Shown here piece by piece: positions 1 through 9,572 of a stretch of 9,572 nt of DNA. The translations under genes and the position numbers were made by a program. Every line of letters begins with the position of its first letter. Within the stretch, counting starts at the first letter, position 1. Origin of the DNA: a virus (taxonomy: Duplodnaviria; Heunggongvirae; Uroviricota; Caudoviricetes); IMG/VR virus record IMGVR_UViG_2778261569_000018. One strand, 5' to 3'. The notes under the pieces are model-generated. The model was not told the origin of the DNA. It saw only the letters and a list, made by a program, of their open reading frames with translations, and ran no database searches.

Positions 1-516
1 GCAGAACGACCTGACCAGCTGTGGGTGGCTGATTTTACTTACGTCAGCACATGGCAGGGCTTCGTCTATGTGGCGTTTATCATTGATGTGTTTGCCGGAT
101 ACATCGTGGGGTGGCGGGTCTCATCGTCTATGGAAACGACATTCGTGCTGGATGCGCTGGAGCAGGCGTTGTGGGCCCGTCGTCCGTCTGGCACCATCCA
201 TCACAGCGATAAAGGCTCTCAGTATGTGTCACTGGCCTATACGGAGCGACTAAAAGAAGCCGGATTACTGGCATCAACAGGGAGTACAGGCGACTCGTAT
301 GACAACGCGATGGCTGAGAGCATCAATGGTCTTTACAAAGCGGAGGTAATACACCGTAAGAGCTGGAAAAACCGTGCAGAAGTGGAACTGGCCACACTAA
401 CGTGGGTGGACTGGTATAACAATCGACGATTGCTGGGAAGGCTGGGCCATACTCCTCCGGCAGAAGCAGAAAAAGCTTATTATGCTTCCATCGGAAACGA
501 TGATCTGGCAGCCTGA
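1..516 (+). CDS. IS3-family transposase OrfB (integrase catalytic domain), 5'-truncated by window edge
   Basis: Frame 1 is open from nt 1 ([15 protein letters not shown]...). Typical IS3 OrfB motifs [30 protein letters not shown]. Stop TGA at 514-516. The ORF-track start at 25 is a GTG inside the real gene. Confidence 0.9.
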
Positions 517-558
517 GTTCACAGATAAAACACTCTCCAGGAAACCCGGGGCGGTTCA
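1..558 (+). mobile_element. IS3-family insertion sequence (IS629/IS1203-like), 3' portion only; element continues upstream of window
   Basis: Encodes the C-terminal part of an OrfB DDE transposase. Sequence ends ...GGGGCGGTTCA at 558 (IS3-type CA terminus); similarity to the inverted copy at 9015-9572 stops exactly at 558/559. Confidence 0.85.
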
Positions 559-905
559 GACTGAAGATAATGTGATTGCTCCCGCCTGCTCAACACTCTG
601 TGATCGATACGAATCAGTTCGTACTTATCTACTAGGAAGTTGACTGTATCGGCTAAGGGGAATCCCGTTTTCAATATGTACCTTCATAACAGTGTCGTCA
701 ATGCGCTGCGTATCGTTAAGAGTCAGGCTGTAGTGTTTGTCCTGCAGGTATGTAACTAGGGGCTGTCAGACGGTTACAGAGGACTTCGCCACACGTTTTC
801 GGAATATAGGTAAAATTCTCATCGTCGGTTATTCTGCGAATAAAAGAAATTAATTGCGGACGGGTTTTTCGCGGTACGTCACTGTCGTATGGCAGCCAGC
901 GTATC
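559..905 (-). pseudogene. cbtA: CbtA/YkfI/YpjF-family toxin remnant, frameshifted and 3'-truncated by the IS insertion at 558
   Basis: Minus-strand translation of about 628-765 gives QPLVTYLQDKHYSLTLNDTQRIDDTVMKVHIENGIPL, then stop. A different frame from about 653 to 559 gives ADTVNFLVDKYELIRIDHRVLSRREQSHYLQ and runs straight into the IS end. This matches the central region of CbtA/YkfI toxins as recalled. The N-terminal region is not recognisable in any frame and there is no intact ORF of 60 aa or more. Confidence 0.55.
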
Positions 906-910
906 TTGGT

Positions 911-1319
911 TTATGCCCTGCTCCGTATTGTTATGTCGGTCGGTATGGCATAATGCAGTCCTAGCTTTTTCATCGCTGGCAAATGTACCAGTGCGAACCG
1001 AAGGGGGGATTCACCGATCATCCTTTTCGCATACAGCGTGACGGTCTGCTGATGACGGGGATTCAGTTCACCGCTGGTGAACATGAGTTCCAGTTGTTTC
1101 ATCAGCAGTGGAAAGGCTTGGTCCAGATGGTATGCATCCGCATCGCTGAACCGGCCTCTGATACCGGCGCGGTCTGCAAGGTAATGCAACTGATTGCCCT
1201 CCTGCACCAGACGGGCGCCAAAACGGGGTGTCACTGTCACGAACGGTGCAGGGCAGCCCCCACCAGGGGCGGTCGTGATTGTCGTCGGGATAATTTGTTT
1301 CATGGAGCGTGTCTGACAC
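911..1319 (-). pseudogene. cbeA: CbeA (YeeU)-like antitoxin with an internal frameshift
   Basis: N-terminus MSDTLHETNYPDDNHDRPWWGLPCTV is in one frame (GTG start at 1317-1319). The rest, TPRFGARLVQEGNQLHYLADRAGIRGRFSDADAYHLDQAFPLLMKQLELMFTSGELNPRHQQTVTLYAK..., is in a second frame. The shift maps to 1229-1244, where there is an apparent 10-nt insertion containing a GTGACA GTGACA tandem duplication. The open frame also runs past the expected C-terminus to 911. Confidence 0.7.
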
Positions 1320-1398
1320 GATAAAATCCTCACAGAAAATCGGTTAAGAACGGTCAGGTAATGTCGATAATTCTGCTCATCAGAATGCCCTTACTGAC

Positions 1399-1620
1399 TC
1401 AGTTCAGAGTGACGCTCATCAGCCGGACATACGGGCCAAAACTGTCCTTACGGCGTTCTGCAAACACGGCCAGCACACCGGGAATATTCTGCACTTCACG
1501 ACCGGTATACGCCTTAGCACTGCCGTGCCAGCGGTATTTGCCGGTACAGAACGGAAAAAGACGGGATGCAGGATGCTGTTGGTGAATACGCATGGCTTCA
1601 CCACGGGTGATGATTTTCAT
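1399..1620 (-). CDS. yeeT: YeeT/YkfH/YpjJ-family protein (DUF987)
   Basis: 73-aa ORF MKIITRGEAMRIHQQHP...VRLMSVTLN with ATG start, near-identical to my recollection of E. coli YeeT. Sits in the conserved position between the RadC-like gene and the antitoxin. Confidence 0.85.
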   Translation of the reverse strand: MKIITRGEAMRIHQQHPASRLFPFCTGKYRWHGSAKAYTGREVQNIPGVLAVFAERRKDSFGPYVRLMSVTLN

Positions 1621-1688
1621 GGTGTGATACCTCTGAAGACAGAAGATAAAAGTGAAAACAGGTGTGATGTGGTGGTGACGGTGACGGG

Positions 1689-7411: not shown

Positions 7412-7671
7412 TTCGCACTCTCCACATCGATTAAACCGATATCTATCAGGGAGGTAACTTTTTGTAGCCAGCTATTGATTACTGTCGCCTGTTCCCCGCC
7501 CACCGAGGGAACAATCTCATTCATCACATGAACCAGACCTGTGCGCGCTCTGGTAAGCCGTTCAGTCGCGCAATCTGCGGGAGTGAATGTGTCTGGATAT
7601 GGCTCTTCACGCCCCAGCAATGATTCAATTTCCAGCTCACACGGATGACGATAAATTAAGTTGATATTCAT
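7408..7671 (-). CDS. Hypothetical small protein, 87 aa
   Basis: ATG start at 7669-7671 overlapping the upstream stop (ATGA). Confidence 0.55.
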   Translation of the reverse strand: MNINLIYRHPCELEIESLLGREEPYPDTFTPADCATERLTRARTGLVHVMNEIVPSVGGEQATVINSWLQKVTSLIDIGLIDVESAK

Positions 7672-7862
7672 TTTTCACCCCCAAGAATTACCAGCTCGGC
7701 ACGGGCATCGTTAACCAAAGATGAGCACGCTTTAATCGCATCCACGACATCAGTAGCGTCCATTTCTTCAGCCGAAAGACTGACAGCAACCAGGACAGCC
7801 GCTGCTTGCTCGATTAATTGAAGTGCGGACGTAAGGCGAGGGGTATTAATTGAGTTATTCAT
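7668..7862 (-). CDS. Hypothetical small acidic protein, about 64 aa
   Basis: The ORF-track frame extends to 7919, but the ATG at 7860-7862 (MNNSINTPRL...) makes an 8-nt ATGAATAA overlap with the upstream gene's stop at 7855-7857. Confidence 0.5.
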   Translation of the reverse strand: MNNSINTPRLTSALQLIEQAAAVLVAVSLSAEEMDATDVVDAIKACSSLVNDARAELVILGGEK

Positions 7863-8073
7863 TGGTTGCCCCCGTTTTTCCTGGCATTTCGCCACCTTCC
7901 AGCAGGAAATGAACGTCACGAACGGCGAGATCCAATATCGCGAGTAACGCCTTCAGTCTTTCGTCTCGTGAGGGAGAGTTGCTCACCAGAATGTCGTTAA
8001 TCACTTCTGTCAGTGTGATGATCTGGCTTGTGCGTTCGAGGGGATCCATATGCACATCGTAGGTTTTAATCAT
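7855..8073 (-). CDS. Hypothetical small protein, 72 aa
   Basis: ATG at 8071-8073 (MIKTYDVHMDPLERTSQ...) preceded by GGAGGTG with a 4-6 nt spacer. It is the C-terminal part of the 355-aa ORF-track frame, but the strong internal RBS and the rare-codon run upstream argue for a separate gene. Confidence 0.55.
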   Translation of the reverse strand: MIKTYDVHMDPLERTSQIITLTEVINDILVSNSPSRDERLKALLAILDLAVRDVHFLLEGGEMPGKTGATNE

Positions 8074-8260
8074 GTGCCACCTCCATGCGGATACGACCAG
8101 CAAAAAAGCAGATGTGATCGCGCACCAGAGAACGGCGAGCATCGCGTTCAGACTCGGCAGCAATATGATGAATTTTGGCGGTAATTGTCGGGCAATCGCG
8201 GCGAACTGCGGCGATAATCCAGATAAATTGCGGTTTTTGGGTAGGGGTAGTAGCCAGCAT
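8066..8260 (-). CDS. Hypothetical small protein, 64 aa
   Basis: ATG at 8258-8260 ([22 protein letters not shown]...) preceded by AAGGAGG with a 7-nt spacer. Codon usage in this frame is good, while the alternative frame here has CTA CTA CCC CTA. Stop TAA at 8066-8068 overlaps the next start (ATGATTAA). The ORF-track start at 8407 is a TTG. Confidence 0.55.
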   Translation of the reverse strand: MLATTPTQKPQFIWIIAAVRRDCPTITAKIHHIAAESERDARRSLVRDHICFFAGRIRMEVAHD

Positions 8261-8922
8261 GTGGCAGCCTCCTTGTACTGGGAGTTCTTCCCACCACCGG
8301 AGCTGCGAAACTCGCTGGTGGTGGACTGAACAGAGTTCGCAGTACCGGCGTACAAGGAAACCGGCCAGCCTTTCGGCTGCCCTGTCCAGCCCACCATAAT
8401 TTTGCAAGCGACGCGGATTATAACCGCATCACTGAAAAAAGTGTGAGTCTGGCTAACGGCACAAAAAAAGACGCTCGGCGCGTCATGTGTCGCCTCGTAC
8501 ATTTCCGGGCTGCGAAACCCGGCACCCGTTTTATGAGGTGCCTTATAACCATAAACCGTGTTGCCGCATAACGGCAAGCTCTTTTTTATGGACTCCGAAA
8601 ACTCACTATTGGAAGCACCAGATGCACAATACATCGCGCTCATTTCGTTAACGTCGCGCGTGTGGACGAAGGTTTTTGTGGAGTCACTACGCGAGCAGAG
8701 AAAGCCATCTACGACCAGAAATTCTCTGGCGCAGCCGCCGACCTTCTCAACGCTAACACCATCGACCGTAATTTCTGACATAGTTAAGGCATCCGCTCCC
8801 ACCACCAGAAAATGATAAACTTTGCTTGTATCTGCTGTATTAATGCCAGACTTTGCTGTCATATTGCTGGATTTTGGCGACATACCAGCCAGTGAAAATA
8901 TCTTCTTCTGGACGGTTAGCAT
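8254..8922 (-). CDS. Hypothetical protein of about 220 aa, first gene of the operon; 3' end unresolved because the frame has no stop before 7855
   Basis: ATG at 8920-8922 preceded by GGAGG with a 7-nt spacer. Plausible codon usage from 8922 to about 8260. No family recognised. Confidence 0.4.
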
Positions 8923-9014
8923 TTGTTAACCTCCGCGAACTCCTTCATGAAGCGCGCCAGCGGTTGTACGCATGGCGATTGATACCCGTCGCGATAAAAC
9001 GTCACTCGGTTGTG

Positions 9015-9572
9015 TGAACCGCCCCGGGTTTCCTGGAGAGTGTTTTATCTGTGAACTCAGGCTGCCAGATCATCGTTTCCGATGGAAGCATAATAAGCTT
9101 TTTCTGCTTCTGCCGGAGGAGTATGGCCCAGCCTTCCCAGCAATCGTCGATTGTTATACCAGTCCACCCACGTTAGTGTGGCCAGTTCCACTTCTGCACG
9201 GTTTTTCCAGCTCTTACGGTGTATTACCTCCGCTTTGTAAAGACCATTGATGCTCTCAGCCATCGCGTTGTCATACGAGTCGCCTGTACTCCCTGTTGAT
9301 GCCAGTAATCCGGCTTCTTTTAGTCGCTCCGTATAGGCCAGTGACACATACTGAGAGCCTTTATCGCTGTGATGGATGGTGCCAGACGGACGACGGGCCC
9401 ACAACGCCTGCTCCAGCGCATCCAGCACGAATGTCGTTTCCATAGACGATGAGACCCGCCACCCCACGATGTATCCGGCAAACACATCAATGATAAACGC
9501 CACATAGACGAAGCCCTGCCATGTGCTGACGTAAGTAAAATCAGCCACCCACAGCTGGTCAGGTCGTTCTGC
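9015..9572 (-). mobile_element. IS3-family insertion sequence (IS629/IS1203-like), 3' portion, inverted relative to the copy at 1-558
   Basis: Reverse complement of 1-558 at every stretch checked. The encoded 163-aa OrfB segments are identical in the ORF track. IS terminus TGAACC begins at 9015. Confidence 0.85.
9057..9572 (-). CDS. IS3-family transposase OrfB, 5'-truncated by window edge
   Basis: Identical protein to the 1-516 copy, on the opposite strand. Confidence 0.9.

Follow-up and report, generated by a model that had tools for sequence, protein, structure and literature searches.

Insertion sequences (IS) of the IS1203/IS629 type, which belong to the IS3 family, are well known from enterohaemorrhagic Escherichia coli (O157, O111 and O26). 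They are 1310 bp long with TG...CA ends, duplicate 3 bp of their target, insert into genes of prophages and islands, and are found in ca. 38-40 or more places per O111 genome. Together with the transposase, the IS-excision enhancer (IEE) gives rise to simple excision of IS629 and to adjacent deletions ranging from a few nt to more than 40 kb, in which microhomologies are used, and the iee gene is carried by SpLE1-like elements in O111:H8 (PMC9943667, PMC9397093, bioRxiv 10.1101/2023.06.07.543989). Other described systems to be considered here are the end module of CP4-type islands (cbtA-cbeA-yeeT-radC-antirestriction-DUF932), the P4-like satellite prophages found at tRNA-Thr, and IS-flanked segments that are inverted by homologous recombination. 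All of these bear on the stretch of DNA analysed here, IMG/VR record IMGVR_UViG_2778261569_000018 (Caudoviricetes; 9,572 nt, hereafter the window), which ends on both sides in a partial IS1203/IS629 copy and whose cargo consists of a CP4-like module (module X) fused to the early operon of a P4-like satellite (module Y).

The IS of the window is 100% identical to those of enterohaemorrhagic E. coli and agrees with them in length, ends, duplications, copy number and type of target. Nothing essential sets the locus apart from the known IS1203/IS629 polymorphism, except that none of the 5,426 closed E. coli genomes (with their plasmids) that made up the search set has an allele with the full X and Y cargo between two copies. 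Module X carries the usual gene set of the end module of CP4-type islands, with the same gene order and Pfam content, and differs in that both toxin and antitoxin are pseudogenes and in its fusion to Y. Module Y matches the P4-like satellites in gene order, Pfam content and C4/CI-type RNA leader, and differs by its cut primase and by the rearrangement that fuses it to X. The arrangement is therefore ordinary, known IS1203/IS629 biology in O111, the exact allele being a variant of a well-known kind.

The explanation that we favour, and consider highly probable, is that the window is an island fragment lying between two independent IS1203/IS629 insertions. Two full elements would have inserted separately and in opposite orientation, one in the 3' end of an already dead cbtA gene and the other in a DUF4222 gene upstream of the satellite early operon. 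The DNA between them would by then have been a rearrangement product, in which the CP4-like module had been joined to the satellite operon via a 3-bp microhomology. The window would correspond to an 8,456-bp internal piece of the island at tRNA-Thr (thrW, by proA), the contig stopping within a multicopy IS at both ends.

Two separate IS1203/IS629 insertions in the thrW island

Reading both ends of the window confirmed the initial annotation in that positions 1-558 and 9015-9572 are exact reverse complements over 558 nt and in that their inner flanks are unrelated (GACTGAAG... and ...CGGTTGTG, respectively). The arms returned by a repeat finder were slightly longer (1-561 and 9012-9572), with a G at position 559 facing a C on the other arm and a chance match at 560-561; both repeats end at the IS terminus ...GGGGCGGTTCA (position 558, and 9015 on the opposite strand). 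A perfect inverted repeat of this length is far beyond what chance would produce. Both stubs contain the 3' part of orfB, with matches to the DDE-type catalytic domain (Pfam rve, rve_3 and rve_2), and the right inverted repeat of IS1203/IS629, and their 558 bp match thousands of E. coli records at 100%, under the name "IS3-like element IS1203 family transposase". They represent positions 753-1310 of the 1310-bp element, with the right inverted repeat of each facing the cargo. In closed relatives having the window's junctions, the full element runs from TGAACCGCCCC to GGGGCGGTTCA with TG...CA ends, and its copies are annotated in RefSeq with a programmed frameshift and a pseudoknot (orfA-orfB transposase).

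The window is the reverse complement of an entire NCBI draft contig (NJZZ01000070.1, 9572 bp, GCA_002462085.1). Since both stubs end at IS position 753, they are the assembly-graph repeat ends of a short-read contig; their identity, their equal length and the missing outer flanks are therefore properties of the assembly graph and no independent measurement of two copies. A contig with the same inverted IS stub at both ends is the usual short-read output for an island segment lying between IS copies: its sequence is identical whichever orientation the block has in the chromosome, and linkage past the stubs is not given by it. Evidence on the copies themselves comes from five closed relatives, in which the paired full-length IS are 100% identical over 1310 bp; neither divergence outside the window nor an origin of the two stubs as pieces of one rearranged element, either of which would have spoken against the initial annotation, was found.

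Module X is 100% identical to the corresponding DNA of O111 strains SD134209, 11128 and 2013C-4081, and module Y to that of O111:NM 14614 and of a 69-kb contig (L009), which points to an O111-lineage Shiga-toxin-type E. coli (STEC) as the probable source strain, the serotype being deduced from this identity. The insertion sites were reconstructed by comparison with IS-free references, namely O157 4276 for module X and the left site, and FDAARGOS_1260, strain 582 and UTME-14 for module Y and the right site.

On the right, the IS-free site reads ...CGGTTGTGAGACACG... and lies within a DUF4222 gene of 183 nt (60 codons). The window, 14614 and two draft contigs all read ...CGGTTGTG up to the IS, and in 14614 the far side of the IS continues with GTGAGACACG. 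The right copy is a simple insertion after nt 85-87 of DUF4222 with a perfect target duplication (GTG-IS-GTG), as seen in 14614, which has the same right junction. Nothing was lost here, contrary to the initial proposal that this IS had removed the region upstream of the operon: past the right IS, relatives carry the rest of DUF4222, antA, a hypothetical gene, an AlpA-type regulator, DUF6387, the integrase, tRNA-Thr and proA, and the RNA-immunity leader of the operon remains within the cargo.

On the left, ...GATATCTACGGTC is directly followed by TGAAGAT... in the IS-free site, and the window and SD134209 read ...ACGGTC, IS, GAC and TGAAGAT. The left copy has thus added 3 bp that are one mismatch away from a perfect duplication (GTC-IS-GAC in SD134209, which has the same left junction). 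For comparison, the duplications of other IS1203 insertions are CGC/CGC in 2013C-4081 and GTC/GTC in 95NR1. The insertion point is 61 nt within the 3' end of cbtA, and past the left IS lies a cytosine methyltransferase gene, the natural neighbour of cbtA in O157 4276. The initial annotation held that this insertion had destroyed the toxin gene; however, RefSeq describes cbtA as "frameshifted; internal stop" both in O157 4276, where there is no IS, and in 2013C-4081, where the IS is outside the gene and the cbtA remnant that is shared with the window is 100% identical. As cbtA is broken in relatives having no IS in the gene, the left IS trimmed a toxin gene that was already dead. The left junction was also considered as an IS-adjacent deletion of 75 bp relative to 2013C-4081, and this was ruled out, the IS of that strain being a different insertion located 73 bp further out (CGC/CGC). 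Alignment to the IS-free references indicates that the window-type left IS is an insertion of its own.

Each IS thus interrupts, at a site of its own, a sequence that runs on without a break in IS-free relatives, with GTG/GTG on the right and the imperfect GTC/GAC on the left, so that the proposal of two separate insertions stands and the target duplications that it called for are found in relatives. In closed relatives, the block is bordered externally by the cytosine methyltransferase on one side and by antA to the integrase and tRNA-Thr on the other, and the window itself presumably has these outer flanks too.

The same comparison bears on the idea, also put forward initially, that the IS pair acts as a composite transposon, which would have moved the 8.4-kb block here as a unit and could do so again. 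Two identical IS copies bracketing a cargo do have the general architecture of a compound transposon, but the genes on the outer side of each IS are those that naturally adjoin the cargo: the methyltransferase stands beside cbtA in O157 4276, and the 5' part of DUF4222 with antA stands beside ash in FDAARGOS_1260. Moreover, the outer flanks (...ACGGTC and GTGAGA..., respectively) have no duplication in common, each IS having its own 3-bp duplication. In the IS3 family, the circle-forming pathway of transposition uses a left-right pair of ends; here both outward ends are left ends and such a pair is not available. Finally, an IS-cargo-IS unit at a second location was found in none of the 5,426 genomes or their plasmids, the thrW island being its only site. 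Movement as a composite element is therefore very improbable, and under the favoured explanation of two independent insertions the IS pair would not move the block.

Inversion, deletion and IS loss in related genomes

Under this explanation, the IS pair would instead have two effects. It would provide 1.3 kb of inverted homology by which host recombination could flip the block, and it would be a substrate for the transposase and IEE, by which an IS could be removed or neighbouring DNA deleted. Alleles corresponding to both were observed in relatives.

The window's left junction occurs in seven closed genomes. Four of them (SD134209, E2863, 2009C-3675 and 7-16 37A) have the parental isomer, methyltransferase-IS-(cbtA'...X), and three (9662, 1056-1 and 1074-2) the flipped one, antA-IS-(cbtA'...X), the methyltransferase being found beyond the other IS; in both forms the sequences at the junctions are unchanged. 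Inversion between the IS copies, predicted in the initial annotation, is thus seen in relatives, with RecA as its likely agent. The relatives share with other IS-flanked segments inverted by homologous recombination a perfect inverted repeat of 1.3 kb and the presence of both orientations. They differ from a programmed switch in that the inversion is not known to toggle a gene or promoter and in that the cargo is mostly decayed.

Deletions and IS losses were equally found. In 14614, positions 559-5294 of the window (4736 bp) are gone while the IS is kept, its end being joined at a TCA microhomology. Many strains lack Y and have X abutting the right IS at ...ATTCTGCT, ...TTATTC or ...CCTTTTA. 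As for loss of the IS itself, exactly 1310 bp are missing from 2009C-3675, and the IS plus 7 nt from E2863; 95NR1 has X joined directly to the ykgL side, without any IS; and in the 69-kb contig (CAKLDE010000022.1 of GCA_921293675.1), the right IS is gone, with a +2-bp footprint, GTGTG (CGGTTGTGTGAGACACG), at the equivalent of 9012-9014 that frameshifts DUF4222. These alleles match the IEE-dependent events described for IS629 (Kusumoto et al. 2011, as cited in PMC9943667; Calvo et al. 2023) by exact loss, by near-exact loss with a 2-3-nt microhomology or a footprint, and by deletions from an IS end that spare the IS; junctions expected of this activity begin at IS ends and have 0-4 nt of microhomology. 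RecA and IEE are the probable enzymes responsible, the latter being suggested by the junction patterns.

The outer junction of the right IS is kept in at least 20 O111 genomes, in which its inner partner may be Y, either end of X, rclB, fdeC or codA. The joins of the antA-side junction to rclB, fdeC or codA occur among E2855, 2013C-3250, 7-15 45A, 7-58 72A, UTAK-13 and 08-4455, together with 7-32 9A, and imply IS-mediated deletions or inversions of larger size, extending tens of kb into the backbone. A further arrangement was observed in O111:H- 11128 (L003, 8003-15191), where X lies between two directly oriented IS1203, of which the left one, flanked on either side by TTG, adjoins a truncated integrase. 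X is flipped relative to the methyltransferase, and the arrangement implies an inversion together with further deletion and re-insertion. In SD134209 (L001, 11126-12435), the right IS, itself intact, lacks 10 nt of outer flank (GTGAGACACG) and 2-4 nt of inner flank that other O111 strains have; no single known event accounts for this two-sided trimming around an unchanged IS.

For O111 STEC typing and comparative genomics, these data make the thrW-island site a highly variable IS1203 hub, so that differences observed there should not be taken as evidence that genes were acquired or lost by transfer. Most of the cargo genes have decayed, the toxin-antitoxin pair being dead and the primase truncated; effects on phenotype are not expected. 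The main value of the locus is as a caution and a worked example.

The junction between modules X and Y

The cargo is itself a rearrangement chimera of two unrelated island modules, a point missed by the initial annotation. At the join, the window reads ...ATTCTGGGCGAC..., with a microhomology of 3 bp. In the IS-free X reference, O157 4276, the sequence ...ATTCTG continues with CTCATGAACC..., followed by WYL and GTPase genes, and in the Y references ...TACCTG is followed by GGCGAC... within the primase gene. The result is a fusion open reading frame (ORF) of 271 aa made of the primase N-terminus and a foreign tail of 16 aa. Positions 559-9014 were found in one piece in none of the closed genomes, all matches breaking at 5125-5127. 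The identical join is however present in at least nine draft contigs, including those of GCA_921293675.1 (the 69-kb contig), GCA_002462135.1 and GCA_900015835.1 as well as the read set SRR7500891; these nine were found by exact look-up of the fusion ORF with its ATG start, the version with a GTG start giving no match.

This recurrence bears on whether the join or the inverted-repeat ends could be a misassembly. Two things speak for an artefact: the contig comes from short reads and stops in a repeat of ca. 40 or more copies, and its join occurs in no closed genome. Nevertheless, the identical join in at least these four other assemblies or read sets, the occurrence of both IS-cargo junction sequences in closed genomes, and a 3-bp overlap too short to seed a join by an assembler leave an assembly error scarcely plausible.

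Two origins were considered for a genuine join. In the commonest closed-genome allele, X runs to ...ATTCTGCT and there abuts the IS, 2 nt past the join, with the same outer junction of the right IS. Because this allele retains two bases (CT) that the window lacks, it is not descended from the window's join, and this points to a common ancestor having an IS at the right end of X. The join could accordingly be the scar of a third IS1203 located at X...ATTCTGCT and excised with a few flanking bases by IEE and microhomology, the X-only O111 alleles having arisen by recombination of this third copy with the right IS. We give this origin about an even chance. It would account for closed O111 alleles that cannot derive from the window's join and yet share the outer junction of the right IS, and it agrees with IS-less scars being proven at the locus and with the seven or more distinct junctions that crowd into 7 nt, three of which abut an IS and four of which lack one. 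In addition, the motif TGAACCAC, found in O157:H7 4276 (L006) at ca. 11568-11580 just past the equivalent of window position 5127, matches the IS terminus at 7 of 8 positions and lies 2 nt past the breakpoint in the IS-free reference (local P ca. 0.015). Allowing for the number of sites tested, this value is however weak, and no genome keeps X-IS-Y or X-IS-Z, where Z is the natural continuation of X.

Alternatively, the join may be older than the IS insertions and independent of them, either as a microhomology deletion or as one end of an old inversion, its nearness to the IS breakpoint being a coincidence or the effect of a local hotspot. The 3-bp CTG microhomology is typical of illegitimate recombination, and a PerC-HTH block, which is flipped and lies on the other side of X when compared to intact satellites, hints at an old inversion. 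However, two independent breakpoints 2-5 nt apart in X would then be needed, and the reciprocal junction was not found, leaving this origin possible but rather doubtful. The third-IS origin is favoured because of the clustering of at least seven different junctions in a stretch of 7 nt, and the join may well have arisen at a former IS position.

It is unlikely, though conceivable, that the right end of X (ca. 5120-5129) is a true hotspot, in which the cryptic IS end TGAACCAC would have been repeatedly used or targeted by the IS1203 transposase and IEE to give the at least seven junctions, including the X/Y join. If this holds, the alleles of the locus would form a natural record of "sloppy strand transfer" and of repair by microhomology, usable for testing models of IEE action. 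A general resemblance of the IS1203 target sites at this locus to IS termini was considered and rejected: a 7/8 match (P ca. 0.015) was obtained for the X-right site only, and the two real insertion sites are at background.

Several points weigh against the overall account of two IS insertions around a rearranged cargo. The source genome is a draft that gives no view of the outer flanks, of how the block is oriented or of whether iee is present. No closed genome has the full X and Y cargo, and the evidence for inversion comes from derivatives with X only. The left target duplication is imperfect (GTC/GAC). With regard to the join, a third IS as a simple insertion (query made of the X end, the IS and the natural continuation Z) was found in no closed genome, and a reciprocal inversion junction, sought past the PerC-HTH block in O111 11128, is not preserved, as the island ends there at ykgL.

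Gene content of the cargo

The coordinates of all features are given in Table 1.

Table 1. Features identified in the window, with positions numbered from its first nucleotide
Feature	Position	Strand	Remarks
Left IS1203/IS629 stub	1..558	+	IS 753-1310; orfB 3' part, coding sequence to 516; right inverted repeat ends ...GGTTCA at 558; same sequence as the end of full-length (1310-bp) copies in closed O111 genomes
GAC, imperfect target duplication	559..561		Outer copy GTC; 3 extra bp vs IS-free ...ACGGTC/TGAAGAT...; references O157 4276 (L006), 2013C-4081 (L004)
Module X, CP4-like	559-5127	-	cbtA', cbeA', DUF987, RadC-like, antirestriction, DUF932, two unknown ORFs
cbtA (type IV toxin) pseudogene remnant	562..880 (upper limit approximate)	-	Pfam: fragments 519-674 and 625-747 match CbtA profile 54-91 and 29-60; last 61 nt past the IS
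cbeA/yeeU-family antitoxin pseudogene (frameshifted)	911..1333	-	Pfam; RefSeq notes in relatives
DUF987 (YeeT-like)	1399..1620	-	Pfam
RadC-like JAB domain gene	1689..2165	-	Pfam
Antirestriction protein gene	2181..2666	-	Pfam
DUF932 gene	2758..3576	-	Pfam
Two hypothetical genes, end of X	3666..5080	-	312 aa (3666-4604) and 136 aa (4670-5080); no Pfam match
Truncated satellite primase	5077..5892	-	255/918 codons (Zn ribbon, Toprim start) + 16-codon tail from X
CTG microhomology at X/Y junction	5125..5127		X reference ATTCTG/CTCATGAACC; Y reference TACCTG/GGCGACAT
Module Y, P4-like satellite early operon	5128-9014	-	DUF4222', "ash" + C4/isrK leader, six small ORFs, first 255 codons of primase
Six small overlapping ORFs	5879..7862	-	123, 113, 200, 73, 87 and 64 aa; gene order as in intact satellites
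ORF annotated "ash family protein", holding the immunity leader	7855..8922	-	355 aa; C4 antisense RNA 8314-8401; isrK-like RNA 8464-8541
DUF4222 3' part, split by right IS	8916..9014	-	9012-9014 GTG = inner copy of target duplication
Right IS1203/IS629 stub	9015..9572	-	Identical 558 bp; right inverted repeat inward

In intact relatives of module Y, the gene order is int-AlpA-hypothetical-AntA-DUF4222-Ash-small ORFs-primase-P22-like ejection genes, the satellite integrase and tRNA-Thr being outside the window and seen in relatives only. With 255 of 918 primase codons left, the element is non-functional as a replicon. Within the ash ORF, full-length Rfam matches were obtained for the C4 antisense RNA (81 bits) and for isrK (69 bits). 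The Pfam Phage_ASH match (aa 124-232; 8227-8553, minus strand) overlaps the nucleotides of these two RNAs, and the "Ash" protein family may in part be the translation of a conserved immunity RNA leader.

The P22-like genes found downstream of the primase in the intact relatives (L018-L027) comprise DUF2824, P22_gp7 and Inj_translocase, an unusual load for a P4-like element. The neighbouring 123-aa protein is extremely widespread, being indexed in 19,373 blocks of the collection searched; its look-up returned intact satellites only and no informative intermediate.

In module X, no intact CbtA or CbeA frame is left, the toxin being split into fragments and truncated and the antitoxin frameshifted. 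Positions 1008-3647 have copies of roughly 90% elsewhere in most E. coli genomes. Two independent draft contigs (L009 and L011) both end within ca. 30 nt of each other in radC (window ca. 2019-2051), which probably reflects the border of a repeat formed by multicopy CP4-like paralogues.

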